The position numbers were made by a program, and so were the translations under genes. From the IMG/VR virus record IMGVR_UViG_3300020420_000671: a stretch of DNA of 64,000 nt; one strand, 5' to 3'. Each line of letters starts with the position of its first letter. Position 1 is the stretch's first letter. The notes below the pieces were generated by a model that did no database searches, was not told where the DNA came from, and saw only the letters and a list, made by a program, of their open reading frames with translations. The stretch comes from a virus (taxonomy: Duplodnaviria; Caudoviricetes). Positions 4,625 through 45,613 of this stretch are shown piece by piece.

Positions 4625-5042
4625 CCCACTTTACGTAAAACAGCTAGAAGAAATAATTAGTGCTGGATTAAAAGAAGTTCCTATTCCTTATCAAAAGGGG
4701 AACAGTATTAGAATAAAGCATATGATTGTTAGAAAACATACGAATGGATACAGAGTGTTTGATTGTAGATGTAATAAACATATTGAGACAGTATTCTGTA
4801 AAACTGCGGCTGTTGCTATAGCAAAAGGCCTAGCTGAAAACAAGAATTATCGCATTGATCCTGTGTTATCATTAGATCATCAAGTATCTAAACACTACAA
4901 TGACGCTTTATATGCCAAAAGATCTATGAAAAACGCCGAAAATGAAGATACTAAAACTACAGCAGAGATTAAATACGATATAGCTGTTGATAAGGCTTGG
5001 TCCTGTTTAGACCAATTAGAAAAGTTTATCTTTGATAAATAA
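4614..5042 (+). CDS. Hypothetical phage protein
   Basis: ATG at 4614 preferred over the track's TTG at 4608. Confidence 0.65.
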   Translation: MKYNPLYVKQLEEIISAGLKEVPIPYQKGNSIRIKHMIVRKHTNGYRVFDCRCNKHIETVFCKTAAVAIAKGLAENKNYRIDPVLSLDHQVSKHYNDALYAKRSMKNAENEDTKTTAEIKYDIAVDKAWSCLDQLEKFIFDK

Positions 5043-27246: not shown

Positions 27247-27687
27247 ATGACAAGAGTAACTACACTAAACCTACCCACTTTTCACAGATCAATGATTGGC
27301 TTCGACAGCTTGTTCGATGAGATGGACAGAATGTTCGAAAACAGTTCTAATGGATCAGGTGGATACCCTCCATACAATATTGCTAAAATCAACGAAGATG
27401 AGTTTATGATCTCAATCGCAGTTGCTGGCTTTGGTATGGATAACCTAAAGATTGAAAAGGACAAGAATGTGCTTACAATCGAAGGAACACAGCCTAAAGG
27501 CGTTGATGAAGTAAACTATGTTCACAGAGGTATTGCTGGACGTAACTTTACTAGACAATTTACATTAGCAGAACACGTTGATGTAAAATCAGCTAAACTA
27601 GAAAAGGGCATGTTAAATGTTCACCTAGTTAGAGAAGTTCCAGAAGAACTTAAACCAAAAACAATTGATATTGTTGAGGCTGAGTAA
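27247..27687 (+). CDS. Small heat-shock protein Hsp20 (IbpA-like)
   Basis: IGFDSLFDEM, YPPYNI, IAVAGF, HRGIAGRNFTRQFTL, LEKGMLNV. Confidence 0.95.
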   Translation: MTRVTTLNLPTFHRSMIGFDSLFDEMDRMFENSSNGSGGYPPYNIAKINEDEFMISIAVAGFGMDNLKIEKDKNVLTIEGTQPKGVDEVNYVHRGIAGRNFTRQFTLAEHVDVKSAKLEKGMLNVHLVREVPEELKPKTIDIVEAE

Positions 27688-27699
27688 CAGAGGTAAGTT

Positions 27700-27719
27700 T
27701 AGGGGGTGAAAACCCCCTA
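27700..27719. other. GC-rich intergenic hairpin
   Basis: TAGGGGG-TGAAAA-CCCCCTA; no U tract on either strand. Confidence 0.7.
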
Positions 27720-27736
27720 GACAGACAGGATTTATT

Positions 27737-28051
27737 ATGACTGAGATTATTTTAGAAAAAGAAATAAACGTAAAAGAGCAGATTGAAGAAGTTACTAAAG
27801 AACCTTCAAAGTATAAGGTCATATTTATGAATGATAACGAAACTCCTATGGACTTCGTTGTTGCTCTTTTAATAGAAATATTCAAACATTCAGAAAAAAC
27901 CGCCCAAGAGTTGACCATGAAAATACATGCTGATGGTCAGGCAATAGTAGGTATATACTCGTTCGAAATAGCAGAACAAAAGGCAGTAGAGGCCACTAAA
28001 TTATCACGTGAAAATGGCTATCCACTACAGATAGCAATAGACAAAGAATAG
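27737..28051 (+). CDS. clpS: ATP-dependent Clp protease adaptor ClpS
   Basis: PSKYKVIFMNDNETPMDFVV..LIEIF...IHADG.AIVG...EIAEQK. Confidence 0.92.
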   Translation: MTEIILEKEINVKEQIEEVTKEPSKYKVIFMNDNETPMDFVVALLIEIFKHSEKTAQELTMKIHADGQAIVGIYSFEIAEQKAVEATKLSRENGYPLQIAIDKE

Positions 28052-28094
28052 CATAAATACTTTGTTGAATGATAATTTTTACAAGGAGTAAAGC

Positions 28095-28676
28095 ATGAGT
28101 TTAGAATCTTTAACACAAGCGGCAAAACAAAATGCTGACAGAACGGAATTTGCTCGAGTAATGACAGCAGGTAATCTATCAGAGGACAAGTATAAAACTT
28201 TCCTTTGGAATGCTTATTTGGTGTACGATATCCTAGAAGATGTTGCGGCAAGTATGGGTGCATTTGCGCCTATGGATCCTTCAATGCCAGCTGATGATTT
28301 ACCACTTGATGGACTTAAACAAGCAGATGATATATTAGCAGACTTTGTTGAACTAGGTGGCGATCCAGATAATCCTCCAGCAGTAGTACAAGCTACTGAG
28401 GATTACAGAAGTCACGTCGTGAAAAATATACAACACGACAAGCAGAAGCTTATAGCTCACTTATATGTTAATCATATGACGGACTTAACTAACGGACCAA
28501 CATTAGAGAAAAAAGTACCAGGTTCAGGAAAAATGTACAAGTTTGAAGAAATGTCTCACTCTATCGAGGAGATGAAAGAACTTGTTTCAAGACGTTTTTC
28601 TGATGATGATGCTATTGAAGCTAACATTGGTTTTGGTTACAGAACACAACAGTACGAACAGTTAAACGCACTATAA
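28095..28676 (+). CDS. Heme oxygenase-like protein with degenerate heme-binding motifs
   Basis: Overall HO pattern (LT...NADRTEF...Y..FL.N.Y.VY..LE...AHLYV.HM.DL..G...KKVPGSG.MY.F), but Lys replaces the proximal His and GDLSGG is TDLTNG. Confidence 0.75.
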   Translation: MSLESLTQAAKQNADRTEFARVMTAGNLSEDKYKTFLWNAYLVYDILEDVAASMGAFAPMDPSMPADDLPLDGLKQADDILADFVELGGDPDNPPAVVQATEDYRSHVVKNIQHDKQKLIAHLYVNHMTDLTNGPTLEKKVPGSGKMYKFEEMSHSIEEMKELVSRRFSDDDAIEANIGFGYRTQQYEQLNAL

Positions 28677-28677
28677 G

Positions 28678-29361
28678 ATGATTTGGGACAAACTGGTTGA
28701 ATGCCAGGACCAAATCATTAAACTGTTCGATCATCATGGGACTGAGATAAATGAACCAGGAATGGATCATTTTAATCAACCCGGAAGCGGATGGATTAAC
28801 AGAGTCTGGGCAAACGACGACATCAGAAGAGCTCACATAGACGTGGTAGATGCTAGAGATACAAAAGGTCTCTGGATGATGCACGTTTGTGTTTTACCTC
28901 AACTTAACAACGATGGACCTATATACGGCTTTGATGTTATAGCAGGTAAAACAAAAATGACAGGAGCATTCCACGATTTTTCAGCAAGTTCAGGTGGCGA
29001 AGACCATCCAATGGTTCAATGGTATCAGGATGAGGTAAAAGATTTTATTCCGGAGAAAAAAAGAGAACTTCCGGAATGGGCAACAAATATTTTTACTCCT
29101 AGCATGATTGCGGCAAGTAATGTCAAGGAAGAAGAAGCATCAGTTATCATTCAAATAGCTCTTGATAATCTTTTCGAGTATCTTGATACCATTGGTGAAT
29201 ACACAGGACAAGGCGATAGAGATCTAACTCTAGCAAGCCAAAATTATTATTGTCATAATCAGCAACAGAACCCACATACGCCTAGAGTTATGAAATCCTT
29301 AGGATTAAATGAAGCTGACGTAGAAAAGTTCTGTACTGATATGTTATTTCCGAAAAGTTAA
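28678..29361 (+). CDS. pcyX: Ferredoxin-dependent bilin reductase, PcyX-type
   Basis: INRVW...RRAHIDVVD...WMMHVC...YGFDVIAG...GAFHDFS...QQQNPHT; adjacent to an HO-like gene. Confidence 0.82.
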   Translation: MIWDKLVECQDQIIKLFDHHGTEINEPGMDHFNQPGSGWINRVWANDDIRRAHIDVVDARDTKGLWMMHVCVLPQLNNDGPIYGFDVIAGKTKMTGAFHDFSASSGGEDHPMVQWYQDEVKDFIPEKKRELPEWATNIFTPSMIAASNVKEEEASVIIQIALDNLFEYLDTIGEYTGQGDRDLTLASQNYYCHNQQQNPHTPRVMKSLGLNEADVEKFCTDMLFPKS

Positions 29362-36273: not shown

Positions 36274-36760
36274 CATTAAAATTATTAATGAGACAACTTT
36301 ACAAAAAATAGGTTTTAGAACTGACCTTGATGAAAAATGGGTTGAAGCTTACACAAAATTATCTAGACTTGAGCCTATGTTAGTAAATGTAACCAAGGTT
36401 CAAAGCAATATCATCACAATGGAAAATCTTACAAAAAGTCATGAGATGTCATTTAGAATGTTTTTGGACACTATGATAGCAAACTCTACAGAAACAAACC
36501 AAAATTTTATATCCAATTTCTTTACTTTAATCAAAAACTTGTGTATATTCGCTGAAAAGTATAACTTTTTCCACAACGACTTAAACGATGCTAATATACT
36601 GATAGATAGTAAAGGAAATATTAAACTTGTCGATCCTGACTCATTTGTCTTTATTAATAAGTTTGAGAGGTATAGATGTCAATGGAAATATACACAAATA
36701 ACAAAAGAATTTTTTGATGCTTTTTTTGAAAGGAAATATCATGAAACCTACGTACGATAA
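36263..36760 (+). CDS. Minimal protein-kinase-like (APH/RIO-type) protein
   Basis: FFHNDLNDANILID...IKLVDPDS catalytic and Mg-binding loops. Confidence 0.7.
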   Translation: MQNNIKIINETTLQKIGFRTDLDEKWVEAYTKLSRLEPMLVNVTKVQSNIITMENLTKSHEMSFRMFLDTMIANSTETNQNFISNFFTLIKNLCIFAEKYNFFHNDLNDANILIDSKGNIKLVDPDSFVFINKFERYRCQWKYTQITKEFFDAFFERKYHETYVR

Positions 36761-36974
36761 CAAATGTATGATTACCTGTACAGACAACGATAATGTTGCT
36801 GAAGCAGAAGTTGATAGATTTGAAGAAAAGAAATTTTTAGATGTATTTTTAGCACAAAATAAAATACACATGGAATGGAACGGTAAAGTGTTTGTGGGCA
36901 ATAAACTAGGAATGGAATTCACAACACCAGGACCAGAAGAATTAGCAATACTGAAAGGAAGAGGAGATGCCTAA
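36741..36974 (+). CDS. Hypothetical phage protein
   Basis: SD AAGGA before ATG 36741. Confidence 0.6.
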
Positions 36975-37551
36975 TCTAGTACCAGTCATTATAGAAAAAG
37001 AAGCAAGAGGAGAAAGAAGCTACGACATATATAGTAGACTTCTCAAGGACAGAATCATTATGTTAGACACTGATGTGAATAGCACCAGTGCCAGTTTAAT
37101 TGTAGCACAGATGCTTTTCTTAGAATCAACATCTCCTGGAAAACCTATTAATTTTTATATTAATTCACCAGGTGGTAGTGTAACTGCTGGAATGAGCATA
37201 TATGACACAATGCAATTTATAAAATCACCAATACATACAACAGTGATGGGAATTGCGGCAAGTATGGGAAGTTTTCTTGCTATGGCAGGAGAGCCAGGTA
37301 AAAGAGCGATATTACCTCATGCTAGACACATGATTCATCAGCCTAGTGGAGGAGCATCTGGACAGGCAAGTGATGTTGAGATAAGATACAAAGAATTACA
37401 GTATTGGAAAGAAACACTCACTGACTTGTATGTGAAACACATAGGTTTAGATAGAGAAAAGGTAGCCAAAGACATGGATAGAGATTTCTTTATGAGTGCT
37501 CAGGAATCTATCGATTATGGGTTAGCAGATTACATAGCAGAGAAAAAATAA
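36967..37551 (+). CDS. clpP: ATP-dependent Clp protease proteolytic subunit
   Basis: [26 protein letters not shown] (Ser), MIHQP (His), DRDFF (Asp). Confidence 0.96.
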
Positions 37552-37694
37552 TGGATAAGAAACATTGGGAACAAATAGAAAAAGAAAACGAATATATCAT
37601 GGAGAGAATGCATCCAGCAGTAATGATACCTGGATTCTTCATAGGAATTATGGTTTTAGTAGGATGCCTATTTAAAGGATACATGGGGTGGTAA
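37551..37694 (+). CDS. 47-aa membrane peptide
   Basis: Coupled on both sides (TAATG); MHPAVMIPGFFIGIMVLVGCLF. Confidence 0.5.
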   Translation: MDKKHWEQIEKENEYIMERMHPAVMIPGFFIGIMVLVGCLFKGYMGW

Positions 37695-38125
37695 TGAAAA
37701 TTAAATTAGACTTAGAAAAAGTGAATAGCAAACTGCATTGGACAACATTGTACAGTGAAAAAATATTGCTGGCGGTGATAGGAACATTAACTATGTTAGC
37801 GGCCGGCATGGATATTTATAAAATGGTGTTAACACTTAATATTACACTTGCGGATTTATTTTTACTTTTTATCTATGCGGAAATCGTAGGTATGGTAGGA
37901 GCATTTTATATCAGTAATAGGATACCTGTTACTTTGCCAATTGTTATTGCTATGACGGCATTATGTAGATTAATAGTGCTACACAGTAAAGATGCTGATC
38001 CGTGGGTGCTTATCGCAGAAGCAGGTGCTATTTTAGTATTAGGTGGAGCCGCTTATATAATGAGCTACAAGGATAAATTGAGTTTGGAAAAAGAACAGTT
38101 AAGGAAACAAAATGAATCTAGTTAA
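37694..38125 (+). CDS. psiE: Phosphate-starvation-inducible PsiE family membrane protein
   Basis: LADLFLLFIYAEIVGMV..FY...RIPVTLPIVIAMTALCRLIVL. Confidence 0.85.
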   Translation: MKIKLDLEKVNSKLHWTTLYSEKILLAVIGTLTMLAAGMDIYKMVLTLNITLADLFLLFIYAEIVGMVGAFYISNRIPVTLPIVIAMTALCRLIVLHSKDADPWVLIAEAGAILVLGGAAYIMSYKDKLSLEKEQLRKQNESS

Positions 38126-38399
38126 AGAAAAAGTTGCTGAAATGAAAGGTATTCCAGAAGAGAAGGAACTTGTGGAAGCATTACAAAAGGCAATATTTGA
38201 AATCACGTTTAATAAGTTGGACGGCGAAGAAAGAATTATGACATGTACGAAAATTACAGATATGATTCCAGAAGATAAAAGACCAAAAACAGATAAGCCT
38301 GGTAAAGAAGGTACTATTACTGTTTGGGATATTAAAGCTGATGGATGGCGAAGTTTTCGTTACGACCGTGTTACTAAGGCAGTAGCATGTGTGTTCTAA
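38112..38399 (+). CDS. SH3/WYL_2-like small phage protein
   Basis: ITFNKLDGEERIMTCT...VWDIKADGWRSFRYDRV. Confidence 0.75.
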   Translation: MNLVKEKVAEMKGIPEEKELVEALQKAIFEITFNKLDGEERIMTCTKITDMIPEDKRPKTDKPGKEGTITVWDIKADGWRSFRYDRVTKAVACVF

Positions 38400-38402
38400 A
38401 GA

Positions 38403-38479
38403 CTTCTCGTAGCTCAGCTGGATAGAGCGTCGGTTTGCGGAACCGGAGGCCACAGGTTCGAATCCTGTCGGGAAGGCCA
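38403..38479 (+). tRNA. tRNA-Arg(GCG)
   Basis: CTTCTCG/CGGGAAG acceptor stem; anticodon arm TCGGT-TTGCGGA-ACCGG, anticodon 38437-38439; A20-type D-loop; GTTCGAATC; CCA. Confidence 0.92.
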
Positions 38480-38494
38480 TTATAAGGAGATAAA

Positions 38495-38758
38495 ATGACT
38501 AAAAAGAATAAAGATTTTTCCGGTAACTTAATTAGGATATCAATACTGGAGAAAGAAATAGAGTTTGCTAGAAGCCAACTACAACCACATGATACTGGAC
38601 ATATTCATACAGCCATAAGCTGGTTAGAATCAAGACTAAATCATTTGAAAGGTATTAAAGAAGAAGAAATAGATTATCCTGATGGATATTCAAATGAATG
38701 GCGACAGCAACAACAAGATCCAAGACATAATCAATCTGCTTTTAAAGGAAACATTTAG
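38495..38758 (+). CDS. Hypothetical phage protein
   Basis: SD AAGGAG; RSQLQPHDTGHIHTAISWL. Confidence 0.65.
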   Translation: MTKKNKDFSGNLIRISILEKEIEFARSQLQPHDTGHIHTAISWLESRLNHLKGIKEEEIDYPDGYSNEWRQQQQDPRHNQSAFKGNI

Positions 38759-39348
38759 TGAACAACACTTTTAACAATGTTTTTCCTACACTAGTTGGCA
38801 CTTTTGAATTAAAAACTGTCAACAACGAAACACTTATGAACAAGATGGACATGGCAGGTAACGTAGGGCATGGACTGATAGAAAATGGAGTAAGCAGTTA
38901 TGTTGGTGGAGAAGATTGTTTCTTAACAAGATTGAATATTGAAGACTTAAAAAAAGAAATACTATATCATTTGAATGAATACTGTTTTCAAGCAGGTATT
39001 GCTCCTAACTATATCATAAACAGTTGGGCTAATGTGCTTGAACAACAGGGATTAGTAAAAAGGCATAGGCATGAAAAATCAATCATTAGTGGTGCTTACT
39101 ATCCGAATGATAGTGATGCTAATTTAATTTTAGAAAATCCTAATACAATATTTCAAATGACACAAACGAATGTAAACGATAGCATTTACAATTCAGAAAA
39201 AATTTCAATTAAACCTAAGGCAGGTTTGTTGGTAATGTGGCCTAGTCACATCTATCATTATACAGAAAGCAATGATAAAAATAAAAGATACACGGTAAGT
39301 TTTAATACTTTAGACGAATCTTACAAAAGTGCACTAAATAGAAGATAA
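38758..39348 (+). CDS. 2OG-Fe(II) oxygenase (TIGR02466-like)
   Basis: SWANV...HRHE...SGAYYP...WPSHIYHYT..N...RYTVSFN. Confidence 0.85.
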   Translation: MNNTFNNVFPTLVGTFELKTVNNETLMNKMDMAGNVGHGLIENGVSSYVGGEDCFLTRLNIEDLKKEILYHLNEYCFQAGIAPNYIINSWANVLEQQGLVKRHRHEKSIISGAYYPNDSDANLILENPNTIFQMTQTNVNDSIYNSEKISIKPKAGLLVMWPSHIYHYTESNDKNKRYTVSFNTLDESYKSALNRR

Positions 39349-39377
39349 TTTAGATTAATCAGTAAAGGAGTAAAATT

Positions 39378-39578
39378 ATGTTAGCAGGATTTATAGTCAT
39401 GGTCACCGCGTTGTGGTCAATGGACAACAAGGAATATATAGATACAATGAACGAACAACTTGCCAAAGGATATAGTTGGGAACAGATAGAGTGTAGAGCT
39501 CCAACACCAGGAGTACCACATATTGCTATTGAGACTCCTTTAGGCAATAAGTATGTCTGTAACAAGCTAATCAAGTAA
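39378..39578 (+). CDS. Small membrane-anchored hypothetical protein
   Basis: SD AAGGAG; N-terminal TM; two Cys. Confidence 0.6.
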   Translation: MLAGFIVMVTALWSMDNKEYIDTMNEQLAKGYSWEQIECRAPTPGVPHIAIETPLGNKYVCNKLIK

Positions 39579-39579
39579 T

Positions 39580-39655
39580 GCTGGCATAGCTCAGCTGGTA
39601 GAGCAACTGATTTGTAATCAGTAGGTCCGCGGTTCGAATCCGTGTGCCAGCACCA
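39580..39655 (+). tRNA. tRNA-Thr(TGT)
   Basis: GCTGGCA/TGCCAGC acceptor stem; ACTGA-TTTGTAA-TCAGT anticodon arm; CCA. Confidence 0.96.
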
Positions 39656-39874
39656 TTAATGGTCATAGACGTGCGGACCATCCTGTGTCTTAATAGGTTT
39701 ACAATAAGCAGTCACTCTGTGTTCTAGAGGAACTAAATTGCTATAGGAATAGTTTCCATACTGTCTTGGAATGCGTTGAGCATAGTATTGACAAACATCT
39801 ATACTTCTAAATATCATAGGATCTTTCTGTTGGGTCTCGCCTATCAAGACCACTAAGAGAAAGGCGTGGATCAT
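39656..39874 (-). CDS. Small Cys-pair family protein
   Basis: MIHAFLLVVLIG...FRSIDVC...TAYCKP; stop codon abuts the tRNA-Thr CCA. Confidence 0.6.
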   Translation of the reverse strand: MIHAFLLVVLIGETQQKDPMIFRSIDVCQYYAQRIPRQYGNYSYSNLVPLEHRVTAYCKPIKTQDGPHVYDH

Positions 39875-40350
39875 TAGTAGCCTCTATTTACGTAAAGATA
39901 TGCTATTCCGATTACAAAGCCACATATGGTTACCCCCAACAAAATAACCGCACATATTTCTAACACCTTTTGTCTACGTTCTTCTTGAGCATAAATCATT
40001 GCCTGACGTTTTTTACGTATGTCACCTTCGGTCTTTAGAAGTTCATCCCAGGCACTTAATCCACGTGTCATTATTATTATCTGTTTCAATTGGTCCCGCA
40101 TGTCTTCTGCTTTTTTCTTTGCCATAAAGACTGCCATGGCTTCTTCTTCTACCGAACCTGAAGCAAATAATTTTTTAAATAATGGAGGTTTTTTGTTGTA
40201 TTCTTCAGCTTTCTTAATATCAGAAACACAATTCATCCAACGGCCTAAATCTCCTGCCATAGACTCTATGTCTCGGCCGACCGAAAATCCTGCTTTGATG
40301 GTGTTGAAAGCGGCTGTGGCCCCTGCCAATGCGGTTACTGGATCTATCAA
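39874..40350 (-). CDS. Hypothetical protein with C-terminal TM helix
   Basis: TTG start; DPVTALAGATAAFNTIKAG...; hydrophobic C-terminus. Confidence 0.7.
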   Translation of the reverse strand: MIDPVTALAGATAAFNTIKAGFSVGRDIESMAGDLGRWMNCVSDIKKAEEYNKKPPLFKKLFASGSVEEEAMAVFMAKKKAEDMRDQLKQIIIMTRGLSAWDELLKTEGDIRKKRQAMIYAQEERRQKVLEICAVILLGVTICGFVIGIAYLYVNRGY

Positions 40351-40444
40351 TTTATTAGCCCTATTCTGTAACTTGTGGCCCTACTTTGGGTCTTCAAAGT
40401 ATTTATATGATAACCGTTTTGGTTATATAAGTATAAAATAATGG

Positions 40445-40473
40445 TTGACTAATAAAGTGCAAGATGTTATTAT
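40445..40473 (+). promoter_or_regulatory. Sigma70-type promoter overlapping an inverted TGCACTTTATTA motif
   Basis: TTGACT-17-TATTAT. Confidence 0.55.
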
Positions 40474-40502
40474 TAGTTATAATTAAATTTTGAGAGGCAC
40501 AA

Positions 40503-41840
40503 ATGAGAACACAACCACAAGAAGTTATTACAAAATTAGAGGCAGATAATTCAAGGCTAGCAAAAGAATTGGTTTTGGCAGGAGCCATGAACGAAGGATT
40601 GGATGAATTTTTTGAAGGAGTCAAAATGGCACTTGATCCTTTATATACTTTTGGTGTAAAGAAGGTTCCAGAATCCAAAGTTGATGGACAAGGACTTAAA
40701 TGGGAAGTATTTAAAAAACTAGCAGACCAATTACATGACAGAGAACTTACAGGACATGATGCCAGAGATGCTATTCTGCTAACAAGAGACATAGCAACAA
40801 TAGAGCAATGGAATAAGTTTTATAGAAGAATTTTAATTAAAGATCTACGTTGTGGAGTCAGTGAAAAAACTGTAAACAAGGTAGCAAAGGATTTCCCACA
40901 GTATTCAATTCCAATTTTTACTTGTCCACTAGCACACGATTCAGCTAATCATGAAAAGAAAATGATTGGTAAGAAACAGGTAGAGGTAAAACTTGACGGT
41001 GTTAGGGTAATTACTATTATACAAGGTGATACAAGCCATGGTAATTTTAGCAGGGTAGAGATGTTTAGCAGAAATGGAAAACAGTTTCATAACTTTGGAC
41101 ATATCATTTCCGAAATAGAAGAAGTGATAAAAGATAATCCTCCACCATATGATTTGGTTTTGGACGGAGAAGTAATGAGTGCTAACTTCCAAGACCTTAT
41201 GAAACAGGTTCATAGAAAGAGTGGTGGTGTTGCCAAAGACGCAGTTCTACATTTATTTGATATGTGTCCATTATCCGAATTCCAAAAAGGTGTTTGGGAC
41301 AAGCCACAGTCATTTAGAAGCCAAGCAGTTAAGGCTTGGGTAGACCAGCATAGAAGCATTTTAAAGCACGTACAAACACTGGATTGGGAAGATGTGAACT
41401 TAGATACCCAAGAAGGTCAAGATCGCTTTGTAGAGCTTAATAAAGCGGCTGTAGACGGTGGTTATGAGGGGGTTATGATCAAAGATCCTGAAGCTGTCTA
41501 TGAATGTAAAAGAACACATAGTTGGTTGAAGGCAAAACCATTTATTGAAGTAACATTAAAGGTAGTTGCGGTTGAAGAAGGCACAGGCCGTAATGAAGGT
41601 AGATTGGGTGCCGTAATATTAGAAGGAGAAGATGATGGATACAATTATAGCCTTAACTGTGGGAGCGGCTTCACTGATGCTCAACGTGATGAGTACTGGA
41701 CTGAACGTGATAGTCTCATTGGTCAGCTAGTAGAAGTAAGGGCTGATGCTAGAACGCAGTCTCAAGATTCTGAAACGTATAGTCTCAGGTTCCCAAGATT
41801 CAAGTGCTTCCGAGGTTTCGAAGCAGGCGAAAAAGTTTAA
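40503..41840 (+). CDS. lig: ATP-dependent DNA ligase (T4 gp30-like)
   Basis: EVKLDGVR (KxDG), VLDGE, YEGVMIKD, Y..KR...WLKAK, RFPRF. Confidence 0.95.
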   Translation: MRTQPQEVITKLEADNSRLAKELVLAGAMNEGLDEFFEGVKMALDPLYTFGVKKVPESKVDGQGLKWEVFKKLADQLHDRELTGHDARDAILLTRDIATIEQWNKFYRRILIKDLRCGVSEKTVNKVAKDFPQYSIPIFTCPLAHDSANHEKKMIGKKQVEVKLDGVRVITIIQGDTSHGNFSRVEMFSRNGKQFHNFGHIISEIEEVIKDNPPPYDLVLDGEVMSANFQDLMKQVHRKSGGVAKDAVLHLFDMCPLSEFQKGVWDKPQSFRSQAVKAWVDQHRSILKHVQTLDWEDVNLDTQEGQDRFVELNKAAVDGGYEGVMIKDPEAVYECKRTHSWLKAKPFIEVTLKVVAVEEGTGRNEGRLGAVILEGEDDGYNYSLNCGSGFTDAQRDEYWTERDSLIGQLVEVRADARTQSQDSETYSLRFPRFKCFRGFEAGEKV

Positions 41841-41932
41841 TCCTCGCGAACGTAAGGACGGCGAAAAAATGACGGACAAAGAAAAAATGGACGCAGGATA
41901 CAAGGGTAAAACATTCACAATTAACGGTATAG

Positions 41933-42136
41933 ATGGAGATTTTTGATATGTATTGGTTAGTAGTTGTGTTAAGTATAGGAGGATATCCAGAAATGAATTT
42001 ACAGTTTGAATTCAGTAGAAGTTATTATTGTAATTTAGCTAAAGATAAATTTATACAAGCAGATCCGCCTACTATGAAAATTGGAGGTAAGAGTGTATCT
42101 TCAAAGATTAAGAGTATTGAGTGCGAAAAAAGATAA
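41933..42136 (+). CDS. Small Cys-pair family protein
   Basis: MYWLVVVLSIG...FSRSYYC...IECEK. Confidence 0.5.
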   Translation: MEIFDMYWLVVVLSIGGYPEMNLQFEFSRSYYCNLAKDKFIQADPPTMKIGGKSVSSKIKSIECEKR

Positions 42137-42152
42137 TTGAAAGGGTTTTAAA

Positions 42153-42533
42153 ATGAGGAGATTTATTTACGATTGTTGGAATCATATAATGGATGCTGAG
42201 GTTAATCCATTAAGACACATTCCAGATTTAAATGTTAGACACATGATTATGCAGGTTTTAGCTTTTATGTGGTCAGCAGTATTTTCAATTGCCATAGCAG
42301 ACAGTATTATGGCATTTGGTATAAGTGCTATGGTACACGTATTTTTTGTTGCGGCTGTGGTAATAACGGTAGCAACATTCAAAGTGGCAGAATATAAACC
42401 GGGTGTGTTCACTTGGAGAACAGGCTACCATTCTCATGGTAGAGGTAGAACATATACAATTTATAGGGATAAAAAAGGGAATGCCCATAAGGTAGAATTA
42501 CCTGAAGGTGATCCCGGCGGTGAGCATGAATGA
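42153..42533 (+). CDS. Membrane hypothetical protein
   Basis: Two TM helices; NPLRHIPD...RHMIMQVLAFMWS. Confidence 0.65.
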   Translation: MRRFIYDCWNHIMDAEVNPLRHIPDLNVRHMIMQVLAFMWSAVFSIAIADSIMAFGISAMVHVFFVAAVVITVATFKVAEYKPGVFTWRTGYHSHGRGRTYTIYRDKKGNAHKVELPEGDPGGEHE

Positions 42534-43209
42534 TATTAAATTTATAAGTCATGATAAACACGTATTAAAACACTTTCCTATCGTTCCCGCCAAAGATTGC
42601 TTACCGAAATGGTATGCTGATTTAAAGGCCACCGATCCTAATATTTCTAAATGTATGCCAGTACGTGATATGATCACTGCTGGCTACATTATTCCTAATC
42701 CTTATGAACAGGTAGTAGGTATATTAAGTGAAGATGATATAGAGAATCCGGAAGTGATTTTTCCGGTAGAAAGACCTGGAGAGTTTTTCACTGCTATGAA
42801 TCATATGACTGCTCCTAATGCCTTTCATACCCATGACCAATGTCCTGTTCACATTGACGGTAACAAAAAGTCTTATTACAAAATTAAATTGCCTTGGAGA
42901 ATTATTACTCCAAAAGGGTACAGTACACTTTTTATTCAACCTTTTTATCAGTTTACAACTGATTTTGTAATGTTACCTGCTATTATAGACACAGATGAGT
43001 ACGATCATAGTAATTTAATTTTTCCTTGTTACTTCAAAAAAGAAGTTGACATCAAACCTGGATCACCTCTGGTACAAGCAATACCGTTCAAGAGAGATCA
43101 GTGGCAACATTCATTATCATATGAAGAAGAAGGCACTTCGAGCAAGATGAATTTCTTCCTTAATAACATGTACAAGAGAGCTTTTCATCAGAAAAAGACT
43201 TTCAAATAA
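42526..43209 (+). CDS. Conserved phage hypothetical protein
   Basis: PKWY...CMPVRD...GYIIP...PWRIITPKGYS.LF...G.PLVQAIPFKR. Confidence 0.7.
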   Translation: MNDIKFISHDKHVLKHFPIVPAKDCLPKWYADLKATDPNISKCMPVRDMITAGYIIPNPYEQVVGILSEDDIENPEVIFPVERPGEFFTAMNHMTAPNAFHTHDQCPVHIDGNKKSYYKIKLPWRIITPKGYSTLFIQPFYQFTTDFVMLPAIIDTDEYDHSNLIFPCYFKKEVDIKPGSPLVQAIPFKRDQWQHSLSYEEEGTSSKMNFFLNNMYKRAFHQKKTFK

Positions 43210-43210
43210 A

Positions 43211-43239
43211 TTGACTTTTATATATAAAGAATATATACT
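43211..43239 (+). promoter_or_regulatory. Sigma70-type promoter
   Basis: TTGACT-17-TATACT. Confidence 0.65.
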
Positions 43240-43265
43240 ACTAAAAAATCACAGTTGGAGCTACC

Positions 43266-44540
43266 ATGGCAAAGAAAAGAAAAGGTAATATTTTTAAGAC
43301 AAAAGCCACTGAGCCTAAGTGGGACGATGCTAAAGATCTTACAGGTGAACAGTACAGTCGTAGAATGCATGCCGCACAAGAACATTATAGGATGGATTTT
43401 AAGACTGATGCTTATAAAAAATGGATAATAGAATACTGTAAAAGATCTGATAAATGGAAAGATGATGTTAAAACAATATCAAAATGTCCAGACAGAGAAT
43501 TTAGATCTGCTTTGGCAGGACTATGTAGATTGGCAAATATGGGTTGTCCTGATTACCATAAACCGTATGCCGAATACTGGAGAGGTTTGGCAGGCACTAT
43601 GGGAGAGGTCAAGCCACATTCTGAAACAATAGACAAATGGATACAAGAAATTGTAAACGTAGGTAGTACAATTAAAAAGACTGAAGATAAGAAAAAAGAA
43701 GCCGAGAAGAAGAAAGGTAATGTATACAAACCTAGTATACAAGAAAGAATTAAAGAACAAGCACATCTACAATCAGAAGCTATTGAAGACTGGTTAGAAA
43801 AGTGGACAAAGGATCCTAAAAAATTCAAAAAAGACGAGTTTAAATTTAGTAAACATTTTATATCAGCTAAAGTTACCCAAGCTCATGCTAGAGTCATGCT
43901 TGGTTGGTATGAACCTATGGCCGTTGAATTAAATGAAGTATTGAATCCTCCTACAAAAGCTGAATATGAAAGGATGACAGAAAAAGAAAAAGACCTTGCT
44001 GATCAACTGATAGAAGGATATTCAATATATGAAAAGAAGGATCTACAAAATCTATATGAAGGTTATACTAACTTATTAGGTGCTTTGAATATGCTGATAG
44101 ATATGGCTAAAGCTAGTAGAAAAACACGAAAAAGAGTGCCTAAGAGCAAGGACAAATTAGTACAAAAACTTAAATTTAGAATATCCGATGACAAGTATAA
44201 AGTAGCAAGTATCAACCCAATCGATATTATAGGCTGTAACGAGCTATGGGTATTCAATGTTAAAACAAGAAAGATAGGAAAATATGTGGCAAGTCAAATT
44301 GATCCGCTGAAACAAGAAAGAGAAGGCACTGGGTTGAGTGTGAAAGGGACAACTATTACACAATTTAAAGAATCACAGAGCATACAAAAAACTATTAGGA
44401 AACCGGAAGATAAACTTAAAGAATTCCATGACGCAGGTAAGGTTAAATTAAGAACCTATTTGGAAGACATTAATGCTGTGGAGATCAAGCTGAATGGTAG
44501 AATAAACAACGAAACTATTCTTCTTAAGGCAGTAAGATAA
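43266..44540 (+). CDS. Conserved large-phage hypothetical protein
   Basis: 424-aa ORF; C-terminal LWVFNVKTRKIGKY...LSVKGTTI...KTIRKPE...NGRIN. Confidence 0.75.
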   Translation: MAKKRKGNIFKTKATEPKWDDAKDLTGEQYSRRMHAAQEHYRMDFKTDAYKKWIIEYCKRSDKWKDDVKTISKCPDREFRSALAGLCRLANMGCPDYHKPYAEYWRGLAGTMGEVKPHSETIDKWIQEIVNVGSTIKKTEDKKKEAEKKKGNVYKPSIQERIKEQAHLQSEAIEDWLEKWTKDPKKFKKDEFKFSKHFISAKVTQAHARVMLGWYEPMAVELNEVLNPPTKAEYERMTEKEKDLADQLIEGYSIYEKKDLQNLYEGYTNLLGALNMLIDMAKASRKTRKRVPKSKDKLVQKLKFRISDDKYKVASINPIDIIGCNELWVFNVKTRKIGKYVASQIDPLKQEREGTGLSVKGTTITQFKESQSIQKTIRKPEDKLKEFHDAGKVKLRTYLEDINAVEIKLNGRINNETILLKAVR

Positions 44541-44548
44541 ATACTTGC

Positions 44549-45613
44549 ATGGATCAGATAACAAACATTAGAGAAGGTCTCGCTAAACTAACATCAGCAT
44601 TAGAGACTATTGTAACAAAGGATACACCAGCTACACCTGATGCGACTGTAAACAGTATCAGTGGTAATGCTATTCACGGTGGCAAAATCACTTTGTTAAG
44701 AAGCACAGGAATAAGAGATCAAGCAACTAGAACATCATTGCTTGTAGAAGATGATAAAATTACGGTAGGTAGTGCTGATATAGATAACGTAATGGGCGAT
44801 TTAACTGTTGAAGACAATCTTACAATAGGTGGCGAAATAAAAGCTAAAACATTAAGAGTAGACGAAACATATACAGATCAAAAACACAACACATCATTAG
44901 ATTTTCAAGTAGAAGGCGATACACGTTTAATTGGTTTACAATGGCGTAAGAAAGGTGAAGCAACTAAACAATTAGTTTGGCGTGATGATAGATTTTACAT
45001 AAGCAATACTGTTGATCTTCATAGAGATGCTTCATATAGTATTGATAACATTCCTGTAATTACACAGGACTCATTAGGTGCTACAGTAACTAAAAGTAAC
45101 CTTTCAACTGTAGGTAGATTACAAAATTTACAAACAGATGGTGATCTTACTGTGGACGATTATATTTTTTATGAAAGTGGTACAAGTAGATTAGGAATAG
45201 GAACAGAAGCACCAAACGGACAATTAAGTGTTTCTAGCGATGAAGCAGAATTCGTCGTTGATCCAGATTTTGACCACTTAAGAGTAGGTGCTTGGACGAC
45301 AAGTAAAATGTCTTTGATTACAGATAACAAAGAAAGAATTGTAATCAAACAGCACGGAGGAGTTGAAATAAAAGATAAGCTAGGAATCAACACAGCATAT
45401 CCTGGCGAAGATGTTGACTTAGAGGTCAAAGGTAATATAAGATTTAATGCCAAGAAGTTTACAGTTGGCGAATTTCCTCCCACAGAAGGTAATTATAATT
45501 TGGGAGACATACAGTATGATACAAATCCAAGACAAGGTGGATTCATCGGATGGGTTTGTATTATTCCAGGTAATCCTGGTACATGGAAGGGCTTTGGAGC
45601 GATAGAAAAATAA
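44549..45613 (+). CDS. Probable virion fibre-like protein
   Basis: Late box 5 nt upstream; beta-rich; RLGIGTEAP; C-terminal YNLGDI...GWVC...PGTW. Confidence 0.65.
   Translation: MDQITNIREGLAKLTSALETIVTKDTPATPDATVNSISGNAIHGGKITLLRSTGIRDQATRTSLLVEDDKITVGSADIDNVMGDLTVEDNLTIGGEIKAKTLRVDETYTDQKHNTSLDFQVEGDTRLIGLQWRKKGEATKQLVWRDDRFYISNTVDLHRDASYSIDNIPVITQDSLGATVTKSNLSTVGRLQNLQTDGDLTVDDYIFYESGTSRLGIGTEAPNGQLSVSSDEAEFVVDPDFDHLRVGAWTTSKMSLITDNKERIVIKQHGGVEIKDKLGINTAYPGEDVDLEVKGNIRFNAKKFTVGEFPPTEGNYNLGDIQYDTNPRQGGFIGWVCIIPGNPGTWKGFGAIEK

Follow-up and report, generated by a model that had tools for sequence, protein, structure and literature searches.

A heme oxygenase homolog with a remodelled heme pocket is maintained beside an intact pcyX in marine T4-like phages

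The hemO-pcyX cassette in the 64-kb window (the whole stretch of phage DNA analysed here) encodes a heme oxygenase (HO) homolog in which three features of the heme pocket are altered, while its fold, remaining surface, expression signals and coupling to an intact pcyX are under purifying selection. On balance, the protein is probably a selectively maintained pseudo- or non-canonical HO that serves the bilin cassette, that is, an ortholog of the PcyX-feeding hemO whose heme-iron site, to judge from its residues, has been dismantled.

The HemO-like gene, its pocket and its neighbours

The HemO-like ORF matches the Pfam family Heme_oxygenase (PF01126, E 1.4e-11), and the profile of the HemO-like family matches HO-2 in the PDB with an E-value of 1.4e-24. 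An AlphaFold2 model built with 59 homologs has a mean pLDDT of 94.8 and a pTM of 0.91. Its top Foldseek matches are human HO-2, HmuO, Synechocystis HO-1 and human HO-1, with TM-scores of about 0.8. By sequence and by predicted fold, the protein is a member of the HO family. The features of the locus are as follows:

27737–28051, plus strand: clpS (Pfam PF02617), conserved neighbour 5' of the HemO-like gene
28052–28059, plus strand: CATAAATA, a T4-type late-promoter-like box, read from the sequence, directly 3' of the clpS stop
28083–28088, plus strand: ribosome-binding site AAGGAG, 6 nt 5' of the ATG, kept in relatives
28095–28676, plus strand: HemO-like gene, 193 aa, HO fold with a remodelled heme pocket
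28125–28127, plus strand: Lys11 codon AAA, in the column of the proximal, iron-ligating His (HO-1 His25)
28137–28139, plus strand: Asp15 codon, aligned with HO-1 Glu29, the hydrogen-bonding partner of the proximal His in HOs
28479–28502, plus strand: distal-helix residues Thr129–Thr136, TDLTNGPT replacing GDLSGGQM in the alignments
28587–28589, plus strand: Ser165 codon, Arg in intact relatives, aligned with the heme-propionate anchor Arg183 of HO-1
28678–29361, plus strand: pcyX, 227 aa, ferredoxin-dependent bilin reductase (Pfam PF05996), 1 nt 3' of the HemO-like stop

The proximal His of canonical HOs is replaced by Lys11, which falls on the His column both in HMMER pairwise alignments with human HO-2 and HO-1 and in a 59-sequence profile alignment to HO-2 and HmuO. 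This column holds His in 49 of 49 intact-type sequences and Lys in 20 of 20 members of the window's sublineage. Helix A (residues 3–15 of the translation) contains no His, Cys, Tyr or Met. In the glycine-rich distal helix, which in HOs touches heme-bound O2, the canonical G-D-L-S-G-G signature (HO-1 Gly139, Asp140, Gly143 and Gly144) reads T-D-L-T-N-G, with HO-1 Gly139-Asp-Leu-Ser-Gly-Gly-Gln-Val aligned to Thr129-Asp-Leu-Thr-Asn-Gly-Pro-Thr; in this segment Asp130 (HO-1 Asp140) and Gly134 are retained and Gly129, Ser132, Gly133, Gln135 and Met136 are substituted. In a MAFFT alignment with 120 database relatives nearly all sequences carry His and HMGDLSGGQM, and Lys together with TDLTNGPT or SDLTNGPT occurs only in the query and in relatives 95–96% identical to it. 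Thus, the residue loss is not an effect of alignment or chance.

An earlier note, made from the DNA alone, had claimed the loss of both the proximal His and the distal glycine motif. The alignments bear out both losses, and they indicate that the note understated the change, because a third pocket feature is altered as well. Of the pair of residues anchoring the heme propionates, Lys161 (HO-1 Lys179) is kept and the equivalent of Arg183 is Ser165; both pairings come from the HO-2 pairwise and profile alignments and have moderate posterior confidence within the helix. Among intact sequences, 94% have Arg at position 165; the seven variant lineages described below have S, S, E, N, D, E and D in its place. 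Tyr44 (HO-1 Tyr58) and Tyr124 (HO-1 Tyr134) are also retained. We also considered, and set aside, a di-iron HO-like oxidase: none of the changes supplies a new His or carboxylate ligand, and bona fide HOs have the same invariant His, Glu and Asp.

The surroundings of the gene are conserved. The ORF, its ribosome-binding site and the 1-nt gap to pcyX (stop TAA, a single G, then ATG) are as the earlier note described them, and the late box that it reported is present in a conserved position, with the letters CATAAATA and not TATAAATA. This box is a putative T4-type late promoter. All 25 inspected relatives, variant or intact, have a [T/C]ATAAATA counterpart at the corresponding site, mostly TATAAATA in intact-type relatives and mostly CATAAATA in the subclade that contains the variants. 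Upstream of the gene, every lineage retains the box in its [T/C]ATAAATA form, along with a GAATGATAA element and the ribosome-binding site. Pfam identifies ClpS, Hsp20, a GMP-reductase-like protein and a 2OG-Fe(II) oxygenase on the 5' side, and the order hsp20-clpS-hemO-pcyX (27247–29361 here) recurs in relatives. In Pelagibacter phage Mosig (L001), four 2OG-Fe(II) oxygenase genes and a putative ferrochelatase gene are found 5' of hemO-pcyX (36479–44883), and hemO overlaps pcyX by 14 nt.

The partner gene is intact. Against the solved PcyX structure 5OWG, the window's PcyX scores an E-value of 8.9e-81 over residues 1–225, and it has Asp55, Met67, His69 and Asp86, of which Asp55, His69 and Asp86 are catalytic; the same four residues are present in PcyX of every lineage, variant or intact. 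At each of the 58 related loci a hemO homolog lies directly 5' of a co-oriented pcyX, and in the fetched loci the gap is mostly 1–16 nt and never more than about 51 nt. In locus L027 a one-base deletion in an A-run (4860–4865) frameshifts pcyX relative to the 99.9% identical L028; this is probably an assembly or sequencing error.

Variant lineages, their origins and selection

A search of 5.8 billion proteins yielded about 57 marine relatives at 56–96% identity, below which identity drops to 40% and less. Among 50,697 phage records the sole match was Mosig, which has His and HMGDLSGGQM or a close form. The loci compared comprise 51 metagenomic and five distinct viral-contig loci. About 45 of the 57 close marine relatives retain His, GDLSGGQM and Arg. 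The exceptions are seven variant groups, all within one well-supported 17-member subclade, which is further marked by an Arg-to-Asn change at the position of HO-1 Arg136:

D1 (window): residue 11 Lys, distal segment TDLTNGPT or SDLTNGPT
D1': residue 11 His, distal segment ADLTDGPT
D2: residue 11 Asn (His in one member), distal segment GDLENGLA
D3: residue 11 His, distal segment RDLTDGPS
D4: residue 11 Lys, two-residue deletion in the distal segment, His at position 10
D5: residue 11 Gln, two-residue deletion in the distal segment
D6: residue 11 His, distal segment NDLDKAND

Columns at least 85% conserved in the 49 intact-type sequences were compared with the seven groups. Positions 132, 135, 136, 137 and 165 are changed in seven of seven, Gly133 in six and His11 in four, and conservation holds in the other columns. 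Outside the pocket positions, long stretches are invariant in intact and variant proteins alike, including an acidic loop (residues ~64–84) and the VPGSGKMY segment. At the level of these alignments, the change is specific to the pocket. An acidic loop at residues 54–84 (28254–28346) is mostly unstructured, contains the motif M-P-x-D-D-L-P-L-D-G-L and is nearly invariant among intact and variant members of the clade. Neither the Mosig HemO nor HO-1 has this loop, a candidate docking surface.

The origin of the variants was followed on a maximum likelihood tree from which the trait columns had been masked. On this tree the variant label requires four changes (bootstrap range 4–4; at least three are forced by strongly supported branches) and loss of the His requires three. 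In AU tests, placing all variants in one clade is rejected (p 0.021), and so is doing this for the His-less variants (p 0.0115), whereas a joint clade of D1 and D3 is not (p 0.26); these two groups share an identical stretch of 12 nt. The DLTDGP motif common to D1 and D3 may therefore come from recombination, and because of the shared patch and the AU result we claim at least three origins and not four. Judging from these phylogenies, the pocket remodelling arose independently at least three times. The order of the changes can also be read in part. The His is still present beside an altered distal helix and an altered Arg165 in L002 and its cluster (D1) and in one D2 member that stands beside members with Asn. 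Since these D1 and D2 sequences retain His, the distal helix and the Arg anchor appear to have changed first in two lineages, with the His lost later. The step from a His codon to Lys11 takes two nucleotide changes, and the Lys11/Asp15 pair arose in D1 and separately in D4, with different codons.

Selection on the variants was estimated as pairwise dN/dS by the Nei-Gojobori method on codon alignments. The window's gene and L002 have a dN/dS of 0.10 at a dS of 0.68, and pairs within D4 and D5 have 0.06–0.16 at a dS of 0.4–1.6. The median for variant-variant pairs is 0.10–0.11, compared with 0.113 for 222 intact-intact pairs in the same dS range. In D5 the remodelled pocket positions have a dN/dS of 0.11 and the rest of the protein 0.15, and the pocket residues Gln11, Glu132, Lys136 and Glu165 are conserved across dS above 1. 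In D1, the window's lineage, the pocket positions have a dN/dS of about 0.7, with small counts, and the rest of the protein 0.14; the D1 pocket value is equally compatible with relaxed constraint on the pocket and with a new ligand site. No frameshift or internal stop is present in 17 variant DNA sequences from the seven lineages. Maintenance of the gene, which the earlier note had set against decay, is thus upheld (about 0.10 in variant versus 0.11 in intact lineages).

The variant is abundant: a single 90% cluster holds 77 database members, and one member (P0130) occurs on 33 contigs. Several contigs indicate large genomes. Related fragments of 35–78 kb are 15–22% complete according to CheckV, which implies phages of roughly 220–360 kb. 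A gene of the Lys11 type is located on a 327,255-bp NCBI contig (CACRQD010000001.1, GCA_902651215.1, our locus L069), a contig about 90% identical to the window, and a relative with a variant hemO (P0170) on a contig of 372,109 bp. Together, the CheckV estimates and the 327–372 kb contigs point to a marine jumbo T4-like phage lineage. One D4 protein (P0169, in the cluster of P0035) is deposited as 'MAG: hypothetical protein [Euryarchaeota archaeon]' from a 75-kb contig, which is most likely a phage contig misbinned into an archaeal MAG.

Possible functions beside PcyX

In the reading we favour, the protein is an ortholog of the hemO that normally supplies biliverdin to PcyX in marine phage cassettes. 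Canonical, His-ligated cleavage of heme to biliverdin, CO and iron would have been lost, and the protein would be retained to assist the bilin cassette, either without catalysis or with altered catalysis, most likely as a tetrapyrrole- or bilin-handling protein or as a protein that supports PcyX. The earlier note had likewise proposed a pseudo-enzyme kept for a new role. Its maintenance under selection, the coupling to an intact pcyX and the repeated remodelling are in favour of that proposal, with the loss of activity being read from the residues. Remodelling that recurs in this way is better explained by a new or changed role than by accident. At the same time, the acidic residues that replace Arg165, and the different solutions that the lineages have reached, argue against a single shared new ligand site. 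As far as the residues tell, the acidic side chain at position 165 in four lineages argues against binding of heme or biliverdin propionates in the old pose, and the divergent pockets would fit a role that relies mainly on the conserved non-pocket surface, for example support of PcyX. A predicted complex of the HemO-like protein with PcyX scored 0.00, a value obtained without controls that counts neither for nor against binding.

The residues speak against a supply of biliverdin IX-alpha by the HemO-like protein. Under this reading, biliverdin for PcyX would come from another HO, either a second phage copy or that of the host. A six-frame scan with the family HMM found no second HO in the 64-kb window, and in each of four related IMG/VR fragments (15–22% complete) the cassette copy is the sole HO. 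Against this reading, a 262-kb relative whose hemO is intact carries a single HO and no TonB-dependent receptor, so the cassette copy is normally the sole phage source of biliverdin. If an intact second HO occurs only in genomes of the variant type, redundancy would explain the freedom of the cassette copy to change. A distant HO class on long contigs (P0119) was considered as a second copy and rejected, being another hemO-bilin reductase cassette from a different T4-like phage group. The hemO-bilin reductase cassette of a separate T4-like phage group (L064–L067) encodes a 206-aa HemO with HFGDAHGGQ and lies just upstream of the genes for gp59, gp32, UvsX and a DnaB-like helicase.

Among the alternatives, a still-working HO that makes biliverdin for PcyX through a non-canonical active site is unlikely, although several observations are in its favour. 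Heme could bind with no His ligand, or Lys11 could serve as the axial ligand, and the Pro-containing distal helix could keep a kink of the glycine type. The strict linkage to intact pcyX, the conserved expression signals, the retained Asp130, Tyr44, Tyr124, Gly134 and Lys161, and the single HO of the 262-kb relative all agree with activity. Several His mutants of HO-1 are reportedly active inside E. coli. With the HO-1 H25R structure containing biliverdin (5BTQ) and this in-cell activity in mind, loss of the His alone is no proof of inactivity. However, in the phage protein three features fail together, namely the His, the equivalents of Gly139 and Gly143, and that of Arg183. Bulky replacements of Gly139 in HO-1 abolish its oxygenase activity. 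Sister lineages moreover place dissimilar residues at the same positions, up to a two-residue deletion and an acidic residue 165, which is unlike the preservation of one catalytic geometry.

A new ligand or chemistry apart from heme cleavage, such as binding of metal-free porphyrin for photoprotection or buffering, binding of the phycoerythrobilin (PEB) product, or regulation, seems rather improbable as well. AtHO2 is said to bind protoporphyrin IX. The conserved pocket residues of D5 and the convergent Lys11/Asp15 pair of two lineages would agree with a new ligand, as would two precedents: the HO homolog AtHO2, though inactive, takes part in photomorphogenesis (PMC11634067), and 5-ALA overproduction led to photoactive porphyrins in a study of phage AlaS (PMC11480375). 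Nevertheless, the seven lineages share no common new pocket (residue 165 varies among S, E, N and D, and the distal segment varies too), and the pocket dN/dS in the window's lineage is the high value given above. Simple decay, i.e. a pseudogene-to-be kept open by chance or because its translation helps pcyX, is highly improbable: the catalytic residues are gone, the pocket positions of the window's lineage evolve fast and the 1-nt gap could mean translational coupling, but such coupling would not constrain the amino-acid sequence, and the abundant variant genes carry no disruptions, keep long invariant stretches outside the pocket and conserved upstream signals, and have, over dS up to 1.4, the dN/dS of intact copies.

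The favoured reading, a maintained pseudo- or non-canonical HO, can be extended to the clade as a whole, albeit tentatively. In one clade of marine jumbo phages, the cassette HemO may have been turned, repeatedly and under selection, into a non-iron-ligating protein of the HO fold with a new job beside PcyX; the protein could carry biliverdin or phycoerythrobilin, buffer porphyrin or activate the reductase. Since the HO half of the cassette has repeatedly lost its heme-iron site and the reductase half is intact, with both under selection, the picture of a conversion of host heme to phycoerythrobilin would be incomplete for these phages.

Comparison with known heme oxygenases and pseudo-heme-oxygenases

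The hemO-pcyX cassette, active phage HemOs and the pseudo-HOs of plants and apicomplexans are already known. The cassette and an active vHemO have been described, and the role of the cassette in phages of non-photosynthetic marine bacteria was left as an open question (PMC11480375). The text of that paper contains no His-less phage HemO, with zero occurrences of 'histidine', 'proximal' or 'His'. In the literature searched, we found no HemO of a phage cassette that is His-less, remodelled in the distal helix, repeatedly arisen and under selection. If this extended reading of the clade holds, the protein would be the first viral pseudo-heme-oxygenase, and its lineages would form a natural stepwise series from enzyme to pseudoenzyme, in which the distal helix and the Arg anchor change first and the His later. 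The intact forms, those altered only in the distal helix and those that additionally lack the His make up a natural comparison set, usable to dissect which HO residues are needed in cells. The variants also call for caution in annotation, since metagenomic pipelines call all these genes 'heme oxygenase'.

The closest known system is the HemO of phage hemO-pcyX cassettes (marine PhiHemO/PhiPcyX, the freshwater CB_2 vHemO and gene 54 of Mosig). It belongs to the same family and occupies the same place directly 5' of pcyX; a T4-like marine phage background is common to both, and the window's protein nests in the HemO clade. The difference is in the pocket: Mosig and the majority of close relatives have His, GDLSGGQM and Arg165, whereas the window's gene has Lys, TDLTNGPT and Ser. 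The human HO-1 mutant H25R (PDB 4WD4, 5BTQ) similarly has a basic residue in place of the proximal His and was crystallised with biliverdin bound. However, it is a single mutant made in the laboratory, with its distal helix and Arg183 intact, both of which are changed in the phage protein.

AtHO2 and PfHO are proteins of the HO fold without a His ligand that are retained for non-catalytic roles (PMC11634067). The phage protein likewise combines the HO fold with the absence of a His ligand and is maintained by selection; heme-degrading activity is presumably absent from it. As in the phage protein, the proximal His of AtHO2 is replaced by a basic residue (Arg in AtHO2, Lys in the phage), and AtHO2, which is retained alongside active HOs, is linked to bilin (phytochromobilin) biology (PMC11634067). 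The two have independent origins, the nearest relatives of the window's protein being intact phage HemOs. AtHO2 is a long-standing paralog, whereas in the phages it is the cassette ortholog itself that has changed, several times. PfHO of the Plasmodium apicoplast also is without the His ligand, carries bulky charged residues in place of the distal Gly-Gly and has an essential non-catalytic role (PMC11634067). PfHO, however, has diverged strongly, carries an N-terminal extension and works in the expression of organelle genes, whereas only a few substitutions separate the phage protein, which is tied to a bilin reductase, from active-looking enzymes.
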